Sequence record: NC_107631.1
From: a phage
Length of the DNA: 50,078 bases
Direction: 5' to 3' (one strand)
Under the pieces are notes generated by a model. It searched no databases and was not told the DNA's origin. It was given only the letters and a program-made list of their open reading frames with translations. Shown one piece after another: positions 1-48,424 of the stretch (positions are counted from its first letter, which is position 1; every line of letters starts with the position of its first letter). The position numbers and the translations under genes are program-made.

Positions 1-409
1 AATCAAATTTAAATGCACTTCCGCAGAAAAAATCACAGGATTCGAAGTTAATAATCTGTACAAAGGTCGTGAGCACGACGACGGCACTCGCGAAGTAAAG
101 TTAAAATGCGGTAAGTATTTAAAACTTGAAAAGCATGATGAATTACATATTCACGGATCTGATGAAATCTTCTTCGCGAAGTTCACTGAGTTGAAAACAA
201 AGACGCTCAAGTGCACCGGACTTGACCATCGCAACCCGATGAAAAAATCATTCAAGGTTGGAAAGCGTTACCAGGTAGAAAGCGGTCGCGCTCTCGGTGC
301 TGTGGCTGGTTACATCTTTGATGAGGACGGTTGCCGCTGGACCTTATACAGATCCGATATTGGATTTGAGGTAGCTGACGGTACGAAGTTTGAAGGACTT
401 TACTCATGA
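1..409 (+). CDS. hypothetical protein, 5'-truncated at window edge
   Basis: Frame is open from position 2 to the stop at 407-409; internal repeats of K-x-K-C-T / F-E-V type; overlaps the next start (ATGA). Confidence 0.5.
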   Translation, partial: IKFKCTSAEKITGFEVNNLYKGREHDDGTREVKLKCGKYLKLEKHDELHIHGSDEIFFAKFTELKTKTLKCTGLDHRNPMKKSFKVGKRYQVESGRALGAVAGYIFDEDGCRWTLYRSDIGFEVADGTKFEGLYS

Positions 410-891
410 TAAATATAAGAGATGATTTTTTATATGTTGATGGAATTATTTATTATAAGAGTAACACTAGATTTAAAAACCTTGCTGGGAGAGAGGCTGG
501 AAAGTTAGATAGGCTGGGTTACTGTAGGTTTTATGATGGGTTTAGGATGGTTTATAGACATAGATATGTATGGACTATTTTTAACGGCCAGATACCTGAA
601 GGTATGGAAATAGACCACATAAACCATATACCAGGTGATGATAGAATTGAAAATTTAAGACTTGTAACTAGAGAAGGGAACACAACAAATAGAAGTCTAA
701 ATAAAAATAACACATCTGGCATGAATTGCATATACCCTATGAAATCAGGCTCTTACAGGGTAAGAGTTAGATTTAGGGGTAAGACTTACGGAAGGTGCGT
801 TGACACTGTTAGTGAGGCTATAGATTTAAGAGATTCAATACTCATTGATCTTGGTTTTCATGAGAATCACGGATCGAATAGCATTTTTTGA
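406..891 (+). CDS. HNH homing endonuclease (HNH plus AP2-like domain)
   Basis: IDHINHIPGDDRIENLRLVTREGN motif; tail resembles AP2 domain (YRVRVRFRGKTYGRCVDTVSEA); visibly AT-rich codon usage versus neighbours. Confidence 0.8.
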   Translation: MINIRDDFLYVDGIIYYKSNTRFKNLAGREAGKLDRLGYCRFYDGFRMVYRHRYVWTIFNGQIPEGMEIDHINHIPGDDRIENLRLVTREGNTTNRSLNKNNTSGMNCIYPMKSGSYRVRVRFRGKTYGRCVDTVSEAIDLRDSILIDLGFHENHGSNSIF

Positions 892-950
892 AAAACGCGT
901 GTACCATTGGCGGTGTATCATTTACACCGTCAACTAAGGAGTTTATTGTG

Positions 951-2519
951 ATGTTTAATATTAAGCCAAAACTGAATTACCAACAGATTATTGAGATCGC
1001 AAATAGCACTGGAGTTAATCCGGTGGCGATCGCAATTCGTGAAAACAGTTATGGGGATTCAGTTTCTTTTTGGCAAGATCCGATCGATATCAACAGCGGA
1101 AACGATAAGTTCCCTCTGATTTCGTTAGGTGGCGATAACCTGGTATTCGAATATGCAAAAGCAAAAGCTGAATCAGTCCAGTTCCCGGTTTCATCCGCGT
1201 ATGCTCATTTTATCGGTTGCATCTCAGCCGCGATGCTCGGGAAGTTTTGGGTGCAATATCATGGAGAAGAACAGCCGACAGCACTTTACATGGTAATCAG
1301 TCAGCCACCATCAACAGGTAAATCAGCGATTAACTCAGCGGCGATTACACCTATGCGTGCGGAGATTCAGCGACTGAATGAAGAGCGCAAAAAGGAACGT
1401 ATCCGTTTAACAAGTCAGCTACGTCAGGTCGAGAAGGAAATTAAAAACGATCCGAAGGGTAACACGACGGCGGCGCTGTACGAAGACAAGGAAAAACTGG
1501 AAGAAAAGATCAAGAAGATGGCTGATATTGTTTTTGCGGTATCAGATCCTACACCTGAAGGTCTTGCGAAGGTGGCGGCTGTTCAAGGTCACTTCTCCGT
1601 AATCTCTGATGAGGCAACAGCAATAAATACATTGCTGGGACTGACCTATGGCGGTTCTGATAAGAAATCAAACAGCGAGCTTATCCTTAAGGCGTGGGAT
1701 AAAAACCATATGGAGGTCGCGCGTTCAAATCAGGACAACAACTTATCTCTTTGCCCGGTCGGTTCGATCTGCGTCATTGCGCAGGATGAAACAATCAAGG
1801 GCATAATGGACGCAGGCCAGCGAGGTATCGGTGTATCTGAGCGTTTCCTATTGGTTCGCGAGGAACCGCTTTTAGGTACTCGTATTCTTTGCGATGAAAA
1901 TGGTGATGCGCTGTATAAGGAAGTCGATCGAGGGTTGGTGAGTAAATATTATCGACTCGTGCACAACATTATGAAAGAGGACAGCGTTGTTCTCTCTGTA
2001 AGCCGTAATGCTATGCGTGAATTGAACCTTGCGCGTCAGGCGATGGAGCCGGATTTCGCCGCAGGGGGTAAATACTCTCACTCAATGCTACGCGGTCATC
2101 TCGGCAAGTTCGATAAGCACGCCTTGCGTATTGCTTCAGTTCTCCACACAATCAAGAATTGGGAGGGTGAATCACCGAACCGTTCCAATCGTGAGATAGA
2201 TCTTGAAACAATGCAGGAAGCAATCATGATTTTTAATGAGCTTTCCAGAACTTATCTGTCGTCTGCCAGCGCCGCCGGGTATGCTGGTGATGAGGCTGAA
2301 TCTCGTAAGCTGATTGATGTTATCACTGAGATCGCAAAGAAGAACAAAGGTCGCGCACCTATTCATAGCATTGTTGCAAAGTGCCGTAACGTTACGCCGT
2401 TCAACGGTCAACAGAAAGTAGCTGAGCGAATCGACAGCCTGCTGATCACGCTCGAAGAGATGAACTACACTTGCCGCATTGATGATATTGTTTTCATCAA
2501 TCCTCGACTGATGGGTTAA
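951..2519 (+). CDS. putative replication-associated P-loop NTPase (DnaB-like Walker A)
   Basis: Start moved to Met22 of the track ORF, preceded by AAGGAG; ISQPPSTGKSAINSA resembles the DnaB RPSMGKTA Walker A; function is inferred only. Confidence 0.5.
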   Translation: MFNIKPKLNYQQIIEIANSTGVNPVAIAIRENSYGDSVSFWQDPIDINSGNDKFPLISLGGDNLVFEYAKAKAESVQFPVSSAYAHFIGCISAAMLGKFWVQYHGEEQPTALYMVISQPPSTGKSAINSAAITPMRAEIQRLNEERKKERIRLTSQLRQVEKEIKNDPKGNTTAALYEDKEKLEEKIKKMADIVFAVSDPTPEGLAKVAAVQGHFSVISDEATAINTLLGLTYGGSDKKSNSELILKAWDKNHMEVARSNQDNNLSLCPVGSICVIAQDETIKGIMDAGQRGIGVSERFLLVREEPLLGTRILCDENGDALYKEVDRGLVSKYYRLVHNIMKEDSVVLSVSRNAMRELNLARQAMEPDFAAGGKYSHSMLRGHLGKFDKHALRIASVLHTIKNWEGESPNRSNREIDLETMQEAIMIFNELSRTYLSSASAAGYAGDEAESRKLIDVITEIAKKNKGRAPIHSIVAKCRNVTPFNGQQKVAERIDSLLITLEEMNYTCRIDDIVFINPRLMG

Positions 2520-2523
2520 TGAT

Positions 2524-2931
2524 ATGCTTCTTCTTTTAGATCTGTTCAGGTTCTGCGAAGGTTACGACAAATACACTCGACAGCACATAGCGAAATTTAT
2601 ATACGCCCACAAGGAAAGTGAGCGATTTGCTAAGGCCGCTGGAATGACTCACCGTGAATTTACAAGTGCGCTATCTAAGGAGTTTTGCGCACGTTGCGTG
2701 ACTGAGGGTTATCTTGATTGCAAGGATGGGTTTTACTGGTGCAAGGGAAAGATTAAGCGCCCTGTAATGATGAAGCTGATGTGTATTGATGGCTACAACA
2801 ATCGGTATACGTGGGAAATGATGCACATTGGAGAGATGAGTGATGAAGATTTGTTTGGCGAACGTAGAAACATTGATAGATCGGAACGTCGAATTGTGCG
2901 CAAGGCTCCAGCTTACGAAAGAAGAATTTGA
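2524..2931 (+). CDS. hypothetical protein (Cys-rich, basic C-terminus)
   Basis: 135-aa ORF directly after the previous gene on the same strand; no recognisable motif. Confidence 0.5.
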   Translation: MLLLLDLFRFCEGYDKYTRQHIAKFIYAHKESERFAKAAGMTHREFTSALSKEFCARCVTEGYLDCKDGFYWCKGKIKRPVMMKLMCIDGYNNRYTWEMMHIGEMSDEDLFGERRNIDRSERRIVRKAPAYERRI

Positions 2932-10057: not shown

Positions 10058-10510
10058 ATGAGTATTCAACGTATCGCAGAGTCAACTGGTGAAATCGATA
10101 AACGTCACATCAATGGTAACAACGGAACACGACGCGGTAAAGATAAAAAGCCACGACAGCGCTGCGGATTCTATATTCATAAAGAAGAAACACGCGCAGG
10201 ATTGCGAGCACGACTTGATGCGCTTATCGAATATTATGGTGGCCCTGCGGCCTGCGCAAAGGCTCTAAAAGTTAGCAATCAGACGGTGCAAGGCTGGAAA
10301 GAACGCAATATGATTTCATGGCAAGGTGCTGAAGCTGCGCATCGTGCTTACCGCCGACAGGGGTGTAAAGGGTTTAGGGCCGCATGGTTGCGATTCGACC
10401 TGAAGTTTGACGGTAACGGCAAGTGCATTGAGAAGCGATGCAAGAACAAGAAGTTTATGCGAGTGGTGAAGAAGGAAGATATCGGGACGACCAATAGCAT
10501 TTTTAGTTAA
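10058..10510 (+). CDS. HTH DNA-binding protein, candidate transcriptional regulator
   Basis: Cro/C1-type HTH signature (AKALKVSNQTVQGW); basic protein; RBS AGGAG. Confidence 0.6.
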   Translation: MSIQRIAESTGEIDKRHINGNNGTRRGKDKKPRQRCGFYIHKEETRAGLRARLDALIEYYGGPAACAKALKVSNQTVQGWKERNMISWQGAEAAHRAYRRQGCKGFRAAWLRFDLKFDGNGKCIEKRCKNKKFMRVVKKEDIGTTNSIFS

Positions 10511-15751: not shown

Positions 15752-15782
15752 TGCGTTTATCTCCTTTGTTTACGATGAGTCA

Positions 15783-15810
15783 ATTATAGCCATTAACAGC
15801 GTTTAGTCAA
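15783..15810 (-). promoter_or_regulatory. strong sigma70 promoter for the recombination operon
   Basis: On minus strand TTGACT-N16-TATAAT. Confidence 0.55.
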
Positions 15811-16029
15811 TAGAATGCATGTAATTGGCGTGTAATTGCGTGTCTATATCGCTCAAGTTACAACCAGTGTCAACGCAATCAATATCTTAGCCATGTTTTT
15901 ATGTGGTGTCTATTGCGTAATACTTGTAACAGCATTTTCTTAGAAATACACGGATATCCATGAATAGAATCAATATTGATTAAATTTTGAACATATATGA
16001 TAGAAATTTGACGAATCAATAAAATCACC

Positions 16030-16200
16030 TGTTACACGATAGACAACTGTTACACAGCAATAATTATATATATAAAGCTAAAATTAAATATTATCTATCT
16101 ATATATATTATATAGAGTTTTTATCATATCCCTCTGCGGTCGGGTGGGGTGGATTTTGTAACACCCGTTCCGGTTACAAAAATAGACACCTGTTACACGA
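16030..16200. repeat. AT-rich block with (TA)n runs and repeated CTGTTACAC / GTGTTACA sites
   Basis: ATAGACA(A/C)CTGTTACAC occurs twice plus inverted TTTGTAACAC; TATATATA runs; divergent intergenic region. Confidence 0.6.
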
Positions 16201-16219
16201 AAAAATTGTAATCGCACTA

Positions 16220-16248
16220 TTGCAATAAAAGTAAATGCGACATACAAT
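16220..16248 (+). promoter_or_regulatory. sigma70 promoter for the lipoprotein gene
   Basis: TTGCAA-N17-TACAAT. Confidence 0.5.
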
Positions 16249-16277
16249 GCAATCACACTAACGACGAGGACATACAA

Positions 16278-16505
16278 ATGAAAAAGTTAATCACCATTAT
16301 CGCTGCGGCATTCATCCTGACTGGTTGCTCATCAATGCCTGAGCGAACTTGTACGGCAATTTATGAATCAGGAGGCTCAGAGTACTCGGTTTACGTTTTT
16401 GGATCTAAGATGCGAGGAGAGGAGATGCTATTGCGTGCTGGATACCCATTCTCCTTCAACTACGTATCAGAGAAAAACTTCAAGTCTCACGATTGCTCGA
16501 TATAA
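16278..16505 (+). CDS. small lipoprotein, candidate Cor/Llp-like superinfection-exclusion protein
   Basis: Signal peptide with lipobox LTGC; two further Cys; 75 aa; divergently placed beside tail-tip genes, as for T5 llp and T1/phi80 cor. Confidence 0.55.
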   Translation: MKKLITIIAAAFILTGCSSMPERTCTAIYESGGSEYSVYVFGSKMRGEEMLLRAGYPFSFNYVSEKNFKSHDCSI

Positions 16506-35966: not shown

Positions 35967-37535
35967 TTACCGCTTAACCATCCCGGCGAGTCGCTTCATT
36001 CTCTCGATAGGATCATCAATGGTCAGCAATTCGATGTTCGCCGCATCCATGAAGTTATCGACGATATCATCATGCGGGTGGGTGTCATCGTAAGTAAAGG
36101 CGCTATGTTCTGCGATGATTTCCGCAAGCATAGGGTGCTCTTCTGGAAGAACCACGCGACCAGCCTTAATGACTGGCTGAGCATCCATCGCTCGGGTAAC
36201 TTTATCCTTGTTACGCTGCAATGGAGTGATAGAGATCGGAGTCTTCTTCCTGAGATTCTGGATTAAGCCCGTACCGCTTGCTTTGTCTTCCACGTAGATT
36301 TTACGAAGCACGCCCATTGATTTATTGTGCCTCCATGCCTGATTGACGAAAGCTGTAAATTGCCTCTCCATATCCGGCGCTTCCCACTTTCCGCGAATGC
36401 CGTCGATAAAGTAAACCTTATCATTCTTCTTGCCCCACAAACAAAATACCGTGTAGTCGTTTAGCTCGCCTGTCTTCTGAGCGGTATCGGCAGTGATGAA
36501 TCGGTAATCATATTTACCCGGATCTGGCTCGTCAGCGTCAAGACTGCTGCCGTAATAAGTCCACCACTCTGAGTTAAACACTGAGCCACCCAGCGCGATC
36601 GGTTTCTGCTGATACTGAGAATCAAAGGTATACTGATCTGCTTCTCGTAACGCTAACAGGTCGTGAACGCTTTCCTTGCTGGGCCAAAAAGAGTAATGCT
36701 TAACGCCATCCAATTCTACATACTCAGACGATAAAACATCACGCTCAAAGTAAGGCTGCAACCAATCAGGAAGCGTCTTTCCGTATTCTTCAGTAACCAG
36801 CGCCGGGATTGAGATTTGGTCAAACTCAATACCCATCCCGCCATTCATCATGAACCAGGTTGAATCCTGAGCATGCAGTCGTTGCTGAATTGCAATAATA
36901 GGCGTCTCGTTATGCATACGACGGGATCGAATGGTGTTTTTCAATAGCATGTGCGTACGCTCACGCTTAACCTTTGAGAACATATCATCAGGCTTGTCGA
37001 TATCGTCGAGCATTACCATCCCTGAGAATCCCGGCATCATGTAGCCACCACGCGAACCAGTAATACGACCGCCAGCCGCTGCGGATATCAACTCAAACCA
37101 AACCTTTCCGTCACTATTCAGAACCTGAATCTCTTCGTCTTTAGATGTGCCGAACTTGCAGGGCCATAGCTCCTGGAATTCGTTGCTGCTGATAATCTCA
37201 CGAACGCGCTTACTGTTACGCTTCACCAGGCTGTCGGCAAACGACACGTTAAGGTTACGAATCTTTTTACACTTAAGCATTGCGTACACCGGGAGGTGGA
37301 TTGAGAATATCTCAGTTTTTGATGATCCTGGCGTTACGTTAAAGATGGTGTTACCGCGACGACCCGCAACAATCTCTTCAGCCTCATGACACAAGTAAAT
37401 GTGATGCCAGTTCATTGAGTATTTTTGCGCCTGCATAATCTGGAACCATGCCCTAATCATTCCAGAGAAGCTTGCCTCAGATATTTTCTTTATAGCCAGC
37501 TTCTCAAGATTGTTTAACTCTTCCCATTGCAACAT
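35967..37535 (-). CDS. terminase large subunit
   Basis: 522 aa; ATPase-like N-terminus and nuclease-like C-terminus (..FITADTA..DYTVFCLWG..); followed by portal. Confidence 0.85.
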   Translation of the reverse strand: MLQWEELNNLEKLAIKKISEASFSGMIRAWFQIMQAQKYSMNWHHIYLCHEAEEIVAGRRGNTIFNVTPGSSKTEIFSIHLPVYAMLKCKKIRNLNVSFADSLVKRNSKRVREIISSNEFQELWPCKFGTSKDEEIQVLNSDGKVWFELISAAAGGRITGSRGGYMMPGFSGMVMLDDIDKPDDMFSKVKRERTHMLLKNTIRSRRMHNETPIIAIQQRLHAQDSTWFMMNGGMGIEFDQISIPALVTEEYGKTLPDWLQPYFERDVLSSEYVELDGVKHYSFWPSKESVHDLLALREADQYTFDSQYQQKPIALGGSVFNSEWWTYYGSSLDADEPDPGKYDYRFITADTAQKTGELNDYTVFCLWGKKNDKVYFIDGIRGKWEAPDMERQFTAFVNQAWRHNKSMGVLRKIYVEDKASGTGLIQNLRKKTPISITPLQRNKDKVTRAMDAQPVIKAGRVVLPEEHPMLAEIIAEHSAFTYDDTHPHDDIVDNFMDAANIELLTIDDPIERMKRLAGMVKR

Positions 37536-38079
37536 TTTTCAACTCCCCTTCATTAAATGACCTTTCACACAAGTTTTCATGAATTTCTAATTTCGCTTTC
37601 GCGTATGCTGCTCTACATTCTTCCGGAGTGTCAAAATAACCAATGAATGTTACCTTGCCTTTCCTCTTAATCCTGCAATGCCATCGACCAACCCTTTTCT
37701 CAAAATATCCACCAGCAATATCATTGCAATCTCTATTCTGCTGATTCCTCATCGCGTCAGTTTCTTGCAGGTTTTTTACTGCATTGTTTTGTCTGTCACC
37801 ATCAATGTGATCTATTTTTTCAGGCCATACCCCATAATGAAGGAACCACACCACGCGATGAGCAAAAAACCTCCTACCCCTACTACCGCGCTGACCTCTA
37901 AAATAACCGTCTTTAGTAACCTCCCTGAATGCGACGGAGTTTTCCTTATTCCTATGAAACATGTTCTTAAATCTCAATGATGTAGGTGATGATTCGTCGT
38001 AATATACGTGATCCAACAACCACGCCTCATCATCTGCACTTACTTCTCTTGCTAATCCTGTGTTCATAGTCAAACCCAT
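37504..38079 (-). CDS. HNH endonuclease between terminase subunit genes
   Basis: IDHIDGDRQNNAVKNL motif and AP2-like tail; overlaps the large terminase start. Confidence 0.75.
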   Translation of the reverse strand: MGLTMNTGLAREVSADDEAWLLDHVYYDESSPTSLRFKNMFHRNKENSVAFREVTKDGYFRGQRGSRGRRFFAHRVVWFLHYGVWPEKIDHIDGDRQNNAVKNLQETDAMRNQQNRDCNDIAGGYFEKRVGRWHCRIKRKGKVTFIGYFDTPEECRAAYAKAKLEIHENLCERSFNEGELKNVAMGRVKQS

Positions 38080-38632: not shown

Positions 38633-38649
38633 AAATCCATCCTCTTTGT

Positions 38650-38666
38650 TTAACATTTAGTGCTAT
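38650..38666 (-). promoter_or_regulatory. dyad element just upstream of the putative TerS RBS
   Basis: TTAACAT-TTA-GTGCTAT on plus strand; TGGTAAAAT extended -10-like sequence adjacent on minus strand. Confidence 0.4.
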
Positions 38667-45205: not shown

Positions 45206-45249
45206 ATAATACCCGATCCGCTCGATCGGGCTTTAACAAAAAGTGCTAT
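45206..45249 (-). promoter_or_regulatory. dyad-motif middle promoter (cassette family A)
   Basis: ATAGCAC-TTT-TTGTTAA then TATTAT 28 nt downstream after inverted repeat CCCGATC..GATCGGG. Confidence 0.55.
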
Positions 45250-46060
45250 TCCATTCGCTAATTTTTGGAGGCTTTACAGATTCAACACAGTTCTTCAATA
45301 TCGCACACCTTTCGGCAAGTATGTCTGATTTGCTGCCACCTTTGGAAAGGCATTGATCTACAGCTTGCTTAACGTCATCAGTATCAATCCACTTATCCTT
45401 GTGGATACTCCTCCTGCAAGCCTCAATTGTCACTACCTTATTTATGGCAAGGTACTTAGGAACGTTGCAAGCCAGGTTAGTGCTATCTGCTGAGTTTAGA
45501 GGGTAGTTACCTAAAACTCTTCCATCAAGCATCCTTAGCCCATGCAGTTTTACCTCAACATTAGATTCCTTAATGGCTGAAAAAGCCTCACTTATCCTTT
45601 GCTTCCACCTGGCGGATCTGACTGTTGCAAATTCTCCAGAAGATCCCATGCATACCCATTCCCATTTTTCACATAGACTTATCAGTCTGCTTATTGGCTC
45701 GTGCATATGCCACACCGGAGCTGCCTTACTCTTTAGATCTGAAGGCAACTGAGATATGAGCTTATCATTATCCTCGGCACTGCCAGTTATGTCATCCGGG
45801 ATAACAAAGAATCTCAATTTTGGGTTGTCAAACCAGTCAGGAAGGAAGTTGCAATAAAACTCTCTCCAGTCTTGATTCTTCCCGCTCTTCCACTTTGAGA
45901 ACGCCCCATTATCTATGCATACAGTGTCAGCCGCATCAAAGGCTAATTTTATCTGATCAGGTCGCTCGAATGATACGAATGCACCGCTTCCACGGTGCGC
46001 GATTCGTGCAATCCTTCCCCTATCTCCCCATATTGGAGATCCGTGAAAGTGAATTGTCAT
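45233..46060 (-). CDS. DpdA-like DNA-guanine transglycosylase (TGT family), putative
   Basis: Local matches to TGT catalytic motifs: CIDNGAFS vs LTDSGGFQ, FVIPDD vs MIFDEC, SADSTNLACNVP vs GIDMFDCVMP; overlaps the start of the transporter-like gene. Confidence 0.5.
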   Translation of the reverse strand: MTIHFHGSPIWGDRGRIARIAHRGSGAFVSFERPDQIKLAFDAADTVCIDNGAFSKWKSGKNQDWREFYCNFLPDWFDNPKLRFFVIPDDITGSAEDNDKLISQLPSDLKSKAAPVWHMHEPISRLISLCEKWEWVCMGSSGEFATVRSARWKQRISEAFSAIKESNVEVKLHGLRMLDGRVLGNYPLNSADSTNLACNVPKYLAINKVVTIEACRRSIHKDKWIDTDDVKQAVDQCLSKGGSKSDILAERCAILKNCVESVKPPKISEWNSTFC

Positions 46061-46536
46061 AGTTTAAATTTCCTCATGATAGCTATGATTATAAATGCGC
46101 CAACTGTCTTAGCTGCGAATTGAGCTAATGAAACATCAATCATTATGCTTCCGAATGCTATCATTGGGAACGCCATAGAGTCAATTGCAGCCGACACTGT
46201 ATTTGCCGGGATTGATTTGCTGTAGAAGTCACCACGCTTCAACTTGAACGTTATGGCGCTACCAGTTCCAGCAAGGATTACTGATGATACTGATGCAACA
46301 GCTATCATTCCTGCACTGGGGTCTATAATCACTGTAGCAATCCCAGCTACAAAGCAAGCTAGCATCGAATACCAGAACCCAAAATTGTGCTGTATCTTGT
46401 CCCTGATAACCATGTCTGCTGATATGATTACGAGTGCATTGATTGGGGTTGACCACACCCCAAAGTACGCTACTGACAGGTTTGCTGCAACATACAGCAA
46501 AACAAATAATACAATCATTACTGATAATTTACGCAT
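46057..46536 (-). CDS. YhhQ/QueT-family (DUF165-like) 7-deazaguanine precursor transporter, putative
   Basis: About 6 predicted transmembrane helices; F-KLKRGDFYSKSIPANTVSAAIDSMAFPMIAF aligns with E. coli YhhQ FNRLRQSRRWWLAPTASTLFGNVSDTLAFFFIAF. Confidence 0.55.
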   Translation of the reverse strand: MRKLSVMIVLFVLLYVAANLSVAYFGVWSTPINALVIISADMVIRDKIQHNFGFWYSMLACFVAGIATVIIDPSAGMIAVASVSSVILAGTGSAITFKLKRGDFYSKSIPANTVSAAIDSMAFPMIAFGSIMIDVSLAQFAAKTVGAFIIIAIMRKFKL

Positions 46537-46657
46537 ACGGCCTCCGTGGAAAAGATTGGTAGGATCTGGATGTTTGGTCTAACCTGCCTGATTCTGCTTA
46601 CGATTGATTCATCACTTAGAGGATAAAACACACCATTTACGAGCCATCCTATCCTAA

Positions 46658-46828
46658 TCATTCGTCGATCTCTCCAATATACTTAGCCTCTTTCCACTGT
46701 GAGTATGCATCTTGCTCGCTGAACCCGTAGCCAGTAAAGCCACCTCCCTGGCACATGAACCGCTTAAATTTCATGATTCCTTTGTAGCTGTCGCCGCGGT
46801 CGGTGATTTTGCATTCTTCGTTAATCAT
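46658..46828 (-). CDS. hypothetical small protein (about 56 aa), not in ORF track
   Basis: ATG preceded by GAGGAAACGAAG; coordinates approximate. Confidence 0.4.
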   Translation of the reverse strand: MINEECKITDRGDSYKGIMKFKRFMCQGGGFTGYGFSEQDAYSQWKEAKYIGEIDE

Positions 46829-46917: not shown

Positions 46918-47493
46918 TCACAGTCCACACTTTTCGATATGCGCTTTCATCTGGCGAACGATCTCGTTTACGTCACGAGTCATCAATTCGCTATCAGCCA
47001 GTTTACCCACATCAACCACAAACGAATCCAGGCAATCAGCCAGGCTAACTTTTTTCCGACTGCGGCGCTTCTTCACTGGAACTTCTTCGTCACTCACTGA
47101 GATGGTAACGACTCGCAACTTCTCATCGTTCATGGTTACGCTCACCTTGACCGACTTGCCGATTTTGGAGAAGTGACGAGAAACGATCGGGGTGATGAAT
47201 GATGATTTAAACTTCTCGTTAATCTCTTCCGTCTTCCCGAGCAACCAAGACTCGGCATATCCGCTAACAGCATCATCATCAGCGTCAGGGACTGACTTTC
47301 TCACTGCTGCCTCAGCCATCTGAGTAGCGTCGAATGAGAACTCGACATTCTCGCCATCACCATAAAGCTGATCGCAAGCGGCACGGATAACATCGGTCAC
47401 TTTTGCCTCCTGGCGCTTCTCAACGGTCACGCCAGATTTCTGGTAAGCCGCCTGAATTGCTGCCTGCACTGCGTCTGATTGGTAAGAACTCAT
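46918..47493 (-). CDS. hypothetical protein, first gene of the leftward accessory operon
   Basis: Start moved to Met31 with GAGGAG RBS; acidic N-terminal half, basic patch KKRRSRKK. Confidence 0.5.
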   Translation of the reverse strand: MSSYQSDAVQAAIQAAYQKSGVTVEKRQEAKVTDVIRAACDQLYGDGENVEFSFDATQMAEAAVRKSVPDADDDAVSGYAESWLLGKTEEINEKFKSSFITPIVSRHFSKIGKSVKVSVTMNDEKLRVVTISVSDEEVPVKKRRSRKKVSLADCLDSFVVDVGKLADSELMTRDVNEIVRQMKAHIEKCGL

Positions 47494-47608
47494 ATCTTTC
47501 TCCTCATTTTCAATATACACCATGATTAACATGTAACACTGTGTCTCTAATCGTAGTGTTACACGGCGACACGCTTGTGTCAAGGCTTGCGAGCCGATTT
47601 TAAGCGTG

Positions 47609-47635
47609 GTTAATCGTGTTAATCGTGTTAATCGC
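47609..47635. repeat. tandem direct repeat (GTTAATCGT)x3
   Basis: Three consecutive 9-bp units in the divergent control region, next to GTGTTACA sites. Confidence 0.7.
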
Positions 47636-47699
47636 TTTTCCCATATAAATATGAGCCGATAAAACTACTGTATATATAAACATGAATATAATAACCAGA

Positions 47700-47830
47700 G
47701 CATCCAACGATTAACATAGTAGACACGCTATACATCCATATTACAAATAATAGTATCTATATATATAAATAAAAAAAACACTTATATATTATATATATAC
47801 ATATATCTATATGTATATTATAAGGCGTAA
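47700..47830. repeat. AT-rich low-complexity block with TATATATA runs
   Basis: Extended TA-rich sequence resembling the block at about 16060-16125. Confidence 0.6.
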
Positions 47831-47911
47831 TTTGGTGTAATTTTGTCTACGATTGCGATTTAGGCAAATCATATACATGGATTAACACACAATCAAGCGT
47901 AATCGTAATTG

Positions 47912-47928
47912 ATAGCACTTTTTGCTAA
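47912..47928 (+). promoter_or_regulatory. dyad element without an obvious -10 partner
   Basis: ATAGCAC-TTT-TTGCTAA; no -10-like hexamer at +28 on either strand. Confidence 0.4.
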
Positions 47929-48116
47929 AAATGGAGATGACTACCAGGCGAACCGGGTAACACCAATTCCTCCCTCTCACAATCATTGCAATCTCAGCAA
48001 CAAATCAACCAACTGTTGCACACCATGCAATAATCACGTTTCATCATTCGCAATCAATAACAATCAAAATTATTCCACCTATTCCAGTATTGATGGAATA
48101 ATGAGCAATTATTGAA

Positions 48117-48161
48117 ATAGCATTTTTCGCTAACGACTTGACCAGGTTGTCAGGGTATAGT
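48117..48161 (+). promoter_or_regulatory. dyad-motif promoter (degenerate) for the rightward early genes
   Basis: ATAGCAT-TTT-TCGCTAA then TATAGT about 29 nt downstream; followed by CAACCAATCAGGAG RBS cassette. Confidence 0.45.
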
Positions 48162-48193
48162 TCGGGCCATCAACCAATCAGGAGAATCACCAT

Positions 48194-48424
48194 ATGGCAA
48201 TCAAACACCCTGGATTAAAGAAAGCAATCCAGCGCGCCAATGACGAGGGATTCATTGTCTACCGCACACATTACGGTCACATGGGTGGATTAAAAGAGCA
48301 TCATACAAAGGTTGAGCTTGTCGACCTTTGGGAAGATTACGATACATTCCAGTATATCGCCACGTCTGACGTAGAGGCGCAAGTGAAATACATCAACGAT
48401 ACAATTGATAGTTTTAGAGGGTGA
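48194..48424 (+). CDS. hypothetical early protein
   Basis: 76 aa; conserved CAACCAATCAGGAG RBS. Confidence 0.5.
   Translation: MAIKHPGLKKAIQRANDEGFIVYRTHYGHMGGLKEHHTKVELVDLWEDYDTFQYIATSDVEAQVKYINDTIDSFRG

Follow-up and report, generated by a model that had tools for sequence, protein, structure and literature searches.

What is the function of a 700-bp stretch that holds no gene and separates two divergently read genes of a T1-like phage? The question is raised by positions 47494-48193 of sequence record NC_107631.1, which was analysed as one strand, 5' to 3', over its full length of 50,078 nt (the window). The gap is bordered on the left by the ATG of a minus-strand gene (46918-47493) and on the right by a rightward ATG at 48194. 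An earlier, sequence-only reading had placed the region between leftward and rightward genes, and the divergent ATGs at 47493 (-) and 48194 (+) bear this out. A 1.1-kb query around the gap retrieved 52 phage records, named as Escherichia, Shigella or Enterobacteria phages or as Tunavirus T1; Tunavirus was the genus of each matched record with taxonomy checked, and the window is that of a T1-like siphophage. The gap lies at the same position in all 13 relatives with a length of 665-804 bp. Mosaic genes flank it on both sides, and the first gene to its right varies among the relatives (methylase, NinC or small open reading frames, ORFs). We lean towards a composite, in which divergent promoters, a packaging-initiation (pac) region and a separate left-hand protein-DNA assembly would share the gap. 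The right-hand third most likely holds the pac region and, after it, the first rightward promoter, and the best reading of the tandem 9-bp units on the left is that of putative sites for a lineage-specific DNA-binding protein, possibly at an origin. To our knowledge, the pac sequence, the origin and the promoter logic of T1-like phages have never been defined at base level.

By homology, the gap corresponds, as expected, to the genome ends of T1 and TLS and is a known kind of region. The T1 record runs colinear with the window, in the opposite orientation, and its break falls within the gap; T1 base 2 aligns with window position 48030, which puts base 1 at 48031. In the RefSeq record of T1, as well as in another T1 record of later date, 1..2800 is annotated as a repeat_region, the terminal redundancy of 2.8 kb. 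The left end of T1 (NC_005833, AY216660) is a direct homologue with 92.5% identity over 535 bases up to the record end, and the two non-coding T1 ends, 162 and 538 bp, amount to 700 bp, equal to the gap length here. The gp77-family gene on one side, the repeats, the TA core and the dispersed element (all described below) are the same in T1, but the first rightward gene differs and the leftward arm of the window has an inserted DpdA-type module. The T1 records reportedly go back to Roberts et al. in 2004, and the genetics of T1 pac to Ramsay and Ritchie in 1983. The TLS record is likewise opened in the equivalent divergent gap (195 + 588 bp, parts in the same order), and the TLS authors mapped the submolar pac fragment with restriction enzymes to find where pac lies (German et al. 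2024, PMC11447400). The paper on the T1-like phage SU57 places pac in the untranslated end region of T1 and T1-like phages (PMC7718038). In position, the gap matches both the start of the T1 terminal repeat and the TLS pac junction. A packaging start had been one of several options in the sequence-only reading; it is the best supported of these alternatives, given T1 base 1 and the equivalent TLS junction, but it falls outside the features that had been stressed there. Other GenBank records open at 47944, 47963, 47976/7 and 48044. The Webervirus records P7a, Sanco and Roth10 start at points no more than 8 nt apart, which was discounted as independent evidence of a cut since the Sanco paper says that the genome was opened to match T1/TLS.

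No T1 record annotates the internal anatomy of the gap, and the literature reached appears to contain no description of it, in particular none of the swapped repeat set. The features are the following, in window positions.

47494-48193: gap of 700 bp, gene-free, between two divergent genes.
46918-47493 (-): gp77-family gene, the first leftward gene, 191 aa, assigned to PHROG 11083, with a weak DUF7174 match.
47523-47531 (-): unit-core copy GATTAACA in the leader of P-left, with GATTAAC at 47524.
47532-47563: operator-like dyad, TGTAACACT-N14-AGTGTTACA, perfect 9-nt arms, covering the -10 and the start of P-left.
47555-47583 (-): candidate promoter P-left, sigma-70-like, TTGACA (47583 to 47578), 17-nt spacer, AACACT (47560 to 47555).
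47609-47635 (+): tandem repeat of three units, GTTAATCGT GTTAATCGT GTTAATCGC, i.e., GTTAATCG(T/T/C).
47707-47716 (-): inverted unit copy, ACGATTAACA.
47735-47822: TA core, 88 bp, 89% AT, within a 191-bp stretch (47640-47830) of 77% AT.
47824-47850 (+): module GGCGTAATTT GGTGTAATTT TGTCTAC, resembling TGCATGTAATTGGCGTGTAATTGCGTGTCTAT at 15816-15847.
47879-47888 (-): unit-core copy beyond the TA core, GGATTAACAC.
47912-47930 (+): orphan copy of the dispersed element, perfect ATAGCACTTTTTGCTAAAA, no -10 downstream.
47965-48070 (+): candidate pac and first-cut region, G-poor, AATCA at 47981, 48003, 48032, 48052 and 48062.
48069-48102: second dyad, ATTATTCCACCTAT/ATTGATGGAATAAT.
48071-48100: operator-like cluster, TATTCCA-cc-TATTCCA-N7-TGGAATA, two direct copies and one inverted, just upstream of P-right.
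48117-48161 (+): predicted promoter unit P-right, degenerate element ATAGCATTTTTCGCTAACG (48117-48135), 20 nt, TATAGT (48156-48161).

Several of these had been noticed before and were found where expected: the three tandem units at 47609-47635, the two dyads (47532-47563 and 48069-48102), and a TA-rich block of about 130 bp, which is 47690-47822 (133 bp, 80% AT). The sites reported in inverted orientation correspond to a GTGTTACA pair (47532-39 on the minus strand, 47556-63 on the plus strand) within the perfect 9-nt dyad, the arms of which lie 14 nt apart. Two other kinds of content were sought and ruled out. A structured or small RNA finds no support, as an Rfam search of the gap gave no match at E<=1 and the RNA folding z-scores in the gap (-0.9 and -1.15) are not unusual. 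A small protein gene at 47909-48115 was rejected because stop codons or a frameshift interrupt the frame in five relatives.

The alignment of 14 gaps, scored in blocks, separates three groups: group A (the window, T1, ISF001 and ULIM2), group B (BIFF, pSf-2, Sfin-5 and others) and group C (DELF2 and AV106). The ranges of A-versus-B identity given below refer to the eight intact group-B genomes, the rearranged phage 008 being lower in most blocks.

47494-47576, dyad: about 35%.
47577-47608, -35 region: 72-78%.
47609-47660, tandem repeats: 40%.
47661-47684, conserved block: 88-96% (phage 008, 42%).
47685-47730, inverted copy: 43-48%.
47731-47822, TA core: 84-88%, though the blocks on both sides are replaced.
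47823-47904, another unit copy: 54%.
47905-48135, right-hand conserved stretch: 84-97%.

Four repeat-bearing blocks are thus replaced wholesale between lineages and alternate with conserved blocks; in groups with other repeat types their identity goes down to 22-56%. The three copies of GTTAATCG with inverted CGATTAAC in group A become two copies of TGTCTAGC with inverted GCTAGACA in group B, and GTAACCAGT-GCAACCGAT-GCAACCGAC with inverted GCGGTTGCAC in group C. Beyond the TA core, group B carries TCTAGACA at nearly the same place as the unit-core copy of the window. The counterpart repeat of Webervirus is GGTAAGAT, and TLS has two copies of TGTTCACG, with inverted copies, at the equivalent place. 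Repeats stand on both sides of the AT block in every lineage, so that five lineages (three Tunavirus groups, Webervirus and TLS, i.e., three genera) present five repeat sequences in one layout. Because the five repeats share this layout with conserved sequence between them, the pattern reads as the signature of protein sites with lineage-specific specificity. In Shigella phage vB_SsoS_008, the 804-bp gap joins group-A-type and group-B-type left ends and the gp77-family gene is cut to 88 aa; this region looks recombinant or rearranged.

The swap also bears on packaging. Across phages of the three repeat types, the small terminase (TerS) is 89-96% and the large terminase (TerL) 90-99% identical, and the terminase would therefore have to read conserved sequence. 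The array (GTTAATCGT)x3 was ruled out as the terminase recognition site, since TerS is that similar where the repeats differ entirely. The right-hand stretch 47905-48135 keeps 76-97% identity in all 13 relatives. Within it, 47965-48116 is poor in G (14 in 152 nt) and includes five same-strand AATCA motifs in 111 nt versus 0.31 expected, the densest such cluster of the window; T1 base 1 directly precedes the third motif. Similar AATCA arrays occur at the same place in Webervirus (KW1, VAC2) and in TLS, whose base 1 lies inside its array. The adjoining TATTCCA arrangement of direct and inverted copies is found once in the window. In 92 records of Klebsiella phages (Webervirus), blastn matches the surroundings of this cluster, 48050-48133, and no other part of the gap. 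Two Webervirus loci were read; at the DNA level their flanking genes do not align, whereas the block does, as do the promoter units. TLS carries a different tandem palindrome, (GACCAATCGGTCTA)x2, in place of the TATTCCA cluster, just as it has TGTTCACG repeats instead of the GTTAATCG of the window. Taken together, pac is probably narrowed to about 150 bp, where the AATCA array lies beside the TATTCCA cluster.

Multi-part pac sites are familiar from headful phages, such as pacL-pacC-pacR of SPP1 and the P1 pac with hexamer repeats flanking the cut. The candidate resembles them as a unique site with short repeated motifs over 100-250 bp and a cut between or beside the motifs. It has no sequence similarity to them, and it is separated from terS by about 9.4 kb instead of being located within or beside that gene. 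Drexler is said to have found in 1984 that T1 can start packaging between the lambda genes P and Q; the search for lambda esp likeness was uninformative, as the longest word common to the gap and lambda 39.5-44.6 kb has 11 nt and shuffles give 10-15. A pac of P22 type was ruled out: the best match to the P22/Sf6-type consensus GAAGATTTATCTGAAGTCGTTA anywhere in the window is 15/22, and shuffles give 14-17. For TLS, P22-pac similarity was used by the authors to refine the position of pac (PMC11447400), but the same similarity is at chance level in the window.

On the left-hand side, the (GTTAATCGT)x3 array is the highest-scoring tandem repeat of the window (Tandem Repeats Finder, TRF, score 54) and its units are kept in T1, ISF001 and ULIM2. 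Eight copies of GTTAATCG occur in the window versus 1.9 expected, four of them in the gap, including one inverted (47708-15), and the repeat-related sites span about 370 bp on both sides of the TA core. P-left, read from the sequence with 6/6 matches in the -35 and 3/6 in the -10, has a predicted start at about 47548 and a leader of about 55 nt to the ATG at 47493. The same place is occupied by TTGACA-17-CACAAT in group B and by TTGACG-18-TAACAT in group C. Its -35 block, 47577-47608, retains its identity in the eight intact group-B genomes with the neighbours replaced (56% in phage 008). Groups B and C have their own, different dyad at the same position, again over the P-left -10. The hexamer GTGTTA is common to the dyad arms and the tandem repeat unit. 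The count of the 8-mer GTGTTACA in the window, 3 versus 1.36 expected, is not significant. All seven window copies of TGTTACA fall in two gaps, two in 47494-48193 and five at 15.75-16.28 kb, and this confinement to both gaps is also seen in T1 and nearly so in four other genomes.

The TA core lies in the lowest-GC 200-bp stretch of the whole window (47651-47850, GC 0.235), the second lowest being at 15.9-16.1 kb (0.26). Equivalent AT blocks are present in Webervirus and TLS (GC 0.21). Promoter-like matches within the TA block are not above chance. The sequence-only reading had likened this block to one near 16.1 kb; the likeness is real, with common 13-mers TATCTATATATAT and TATATATTATATA, but these are of low complexity. 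What the two gaps have in common, namely TGTTACA, a GTAATT-GTAATT-TGTCTA module and a TA block, speaks for some putative link between them. A composite 18-bp site as at 16 kb was rejected for 47494-48193, where the spacing is off by one base. The second gap itself (15752-16278) separates recE (leftward) from cor (rightward), is nearly invariant in the six Tunavirus genomes compared, and has 2-3 copies of ATAGACAnCTGTTACAC flanking a 66-bp block of 86% AT. This recE-cor gap looks like a better, more classical origin candidate than 47494-48193, because its repeats are longer, it adjoins replication and recombination genes, and it is invariant across lineages.

Which protein could follow the repeats? 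All ORFs of the window were compared by tblastn with five full genomes. The primase, both helicases and the Cro-like regulator are all 89-100% identical across the three repeat groups; these proteins, and likewise TerS and TerL, cannot explain the swap because they are conserved where the repeats are not. The gp77 family is the sole protein of the window whose divergence follows the repeat types (identity to T1, 82%; ISF001, 73%; BIFF, 55%; DELF2, 26%; AV106, 26%), with the variation concentrated in the N-terminal half. Its AlphaFold2 (AF2) model has a predicted local distance difference test (pLDDT) score of 77 and has no confident fold relative; no Rep-like fold was found. The tracking is suggestive and could simply reflect linkage. 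When the leftward genes that come first in Tunavirus, Webervirus and TLS were compared, no homology was detected.

The dispersed element belongs to the promoter logic of the window as a whole. The T1/TLS 21-nt element (ATAGCACTTTTTGCTAAAA; TLS form aaATAGCACnnnTTGnTAAAA), scored as the intergenic pattern ATAGCAC-N3-TTG-N-TAAAA, has 22 copies in the window versus 2.2 expected. It contains the palindrome TAGCA-N5-TGCTA and is always oriented with transcription; minus-strand copies include 40479, 41774, 42294, 43868, 44491, 45231 and 46885, and plus-strand copies 27641, 31404, 49471 and 49991. In 15/20 copies a TATAAT-like -10 follows exactly 19-20 nt after the element, with no -35. In many of these units, a short hairpin rich in G+C is also present within or near the spacer. 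The authors of the TLS study left the function of the 21-nt direct repeats open, as stoperator, enhancer site or UP element (PMC11447400). The same element is present in the window, twice in the gap, and the geometry of 19-20 nt and -42 comes from the present analysis.

P-right has this layout, as do about 15 other units of the window with the same leader motif and the first rightward promoter of both Webervirus and TLS. Its -10 matches in 5/6, there is no -35, and the predicted start at about 48168 is followed by the CATCAACCAATCAGGAG leader and the ATG at 48194. At class II activator-dependent promoters, CRP, FNR or lambda cI binds at about -41.5. P-right and about 15 units are like these in having, relative to their predicted starts, a 5-bp inverted repeat about 42 nt upstream, over the missing -35, and a good -10, from which we infer class II activator-dependent geometry. 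The orphan at 47912 departs from this layout in lacking any -10: no hexamer at 16-23 nt downstream exceeds 2/6 matches. This orphan is invariant in all relatives aligned except for its eighth base (T or G). A copy at 38648-38666 (-), 15 nt upstream of the terS start codon, also has no -10 hexamer and, like the orphan, may have a role other than that of a promoter. The dispersed palindrome might be bound by the Cro-like protein encoded at 10058-10510 (+; 150 aa; 'transcriptional regulator' in T1 ST23), which has a weak Cro-type helix-turn-helix match (Pfam P22_Cro, E 4e-5, below cut-off) and is 89-99% conserved in all genomes compared. Of the master early control region put forward from the sequence-only reading, divergent control is supported by the predicted promoter anatomy on both sides of the gap; a 'master' role would go beyond this.

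The composite that we favour would work as follows. Two promoters would point outwards; the TGTAACACT/AGTGTTACA dyad over the -10 and start of P-left would serve as an operator, and P-right, with TATAGT, no -35 and a TAGCA-N5-TGCTA-type dyad near -42, would depend on an activator. The small terminase would recognise the AATCA array, possibly together with the TATTCCA cluster (about 47965-48100), and the large terminase would make the first cut near 47944-48044. Headfuls would run leftward in window coordinates, a direction suggested by the layout of the T1 record, so that the leftward genes would form the terminal redundancy. A lineage-specific binder, most likely the gp77-family product acting through its variable N-terminal half, would bind to the left and right of the TA core, at the three tandem units, at their inverted copies and probably at the dyad. 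Its binding would either control the leftward arm or melt the TA core as an origin.

Several observations weigh against this composite. The P-left -10 is weak, which is why a simple promoter scan missed it, and that scan found 2 sites in the gap versus 4.8 expected from shuffled sequence. T1 base 1 is an annotation of the depositors with uncertain mapping precision, the record starts in the gap partly follow T1 convention ('syntenic with T1') and are not independent, and PhageTerm gave no clear termini for some T1-like phages. The TATTCCA block does not track TerS, which has about 50-55% identity both in Webervirus, where the block is kept, and in genera with no block detected by blastn. Within Tunavirus, moreover, the conservation of 47905-48135 does not exceed the genome average of 88-93%, so what speaks for constraint is the contrast with the swapped blocks, along with the matches in other genera. 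One could go further and take the gap for an ordinary long promoter region with pac located elsewhere, an only approximate or even arbitrary origin of the T1 numbering, and repeats that recombination in a hypervariable genome end left behind as neutral remnants: many record starts are copied conventions, conservation in Tunavirus equals the background, and the genes on both sides are mosaic. We hold this to be very unlikely, as experiments placed TLS pac in a gap of this kind, base 1 is the explicit start of an annotated terminal repeat in the T1 record, 48050-48133 survives in another genus where the neighbour genes do not align, and neutral decay would not give one layout with different repeats in five lineages.

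The other two rivals concern what the left-hand part does. Iteron-type origins and P4 ori/crr combine direct repeats and an AT-rich stretch with an adjacent gene that has a related inverted repeat at its promoter. The window has comparable repeats, an AT stretch and an adjacent gene promoter with a related inverted repeat, and, as with P4 crr/ori, a second locus at 16 kb shares TGTTACA and the TA block; the T1 primase is annotated as P4-alpha-like. The lineage-specific repeats could accordingly be initiator sites around the TA core and the gp77-family gene could encode an initiator that represses itself through the promoter dyad, in an iteron-like manner; such an origin would be compatible with pac in the right-hand part. 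Its attractions are that this is the lowest-GC stretch of the genome, that direct and inverted repeats flank a TA core conserved while they are swapped, in the same layout in three genera with five repeat sequences, that the dyad, whose arms have GTGTTA in common with the unit, lies on the variable adjacent gene's promoter, and that the T1 annotation has a primase and helicases, with no polymerase or recognised initiator. We regard it as possible, if rather doubtful: the AT-rich unwinding stretch is present, but the three units have 9 bp versus the 17-22 bp of plasmid iterons, a search of the gap for DnaA boxes and the IHF (integration host factor) consensus found none, no Rep-like fold was found for gp77, the primase is conserved though the repeats differ, the recE-cor gap is the more classical candidate, and replication data for T1-like phages were not found in the literature reached. 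Equally restrained credence is given to a purely transcriptional switch, an 'immunity-like' module in a virulent phage, with the repeats, inverted copies and dyad as operators of a lineage-specific regulator that times or limits the leftward arm and the TA core as a flexible or curved spacer or an upstream promoter element. The swapping of operators and regulator around conserved promoter hexamers is the classic lambdoid immunity pattern, and P2 Cox is an example of a small phage regulator with tandem sites of 9 bp. These precedents suit the switch well, as do the dyad placed exactly over the -10 and start of P-left and a -35 block that is 72-78% conserved in eight intact group-B genomes while the surrounding sites change. 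It is held back by the spread of sites over about 370 bp on both sides of the TA core, which exceeds the need of one promoter, by gp77 having no regulator match (PHROG 11083, DUF7174 weak, no fold relative), and by the chance-level promoter matches of the TA block. No transcriptome of any Drexlerviridae phage was found in the literature searched.

A bolder extension of the composite, which we think unlikely, is that the left two-thirds form a specificity module as yet undescribed in virulent T1-like phages, in which a fast-evolving protein (the gp77 N-terminal half or its genus counterparts) and the short repeats around the conserved TA core are exchanged together, and which with the 16-kb locus would make a two-site origin like P4 ori/crr beside pac. 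Replication and packaging would then start from one region. T1-like phages are frequent contaminants of laboratories and fermentations and are candidates for therapy. The present analysis gives a promoter model for the dispersed 21-nt element and points to gp77 as the partner of the repeat set; if confirmed, the sequences required in cis would be known, which would aid the rebooting and engineering of phages and the prediction of transduction.

Two further loci of the window were also noted. An HNH endonuclease ORF (37504-38079, -) stands between the small and large terminase genes; it has no counterpart there in five Tunavirus genomes and only 37-38% matches to other HNH genes. At 45233-46828 (-), two small ORFs accompany the genes of a 159-aa membrane protein (phrog_4899) and of a DpdA-like queuine tRNA-ribosyltransferase homologue (phrog_887). 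This set, possibly a module for 7-deazaguanine modification of DNA, is absent from T1, ISF001, BIFF, DELF2 and AV106; it seems to be rare in T1-like phages, with a DNA match in one other phage record only, LHE71, at 89.7%.

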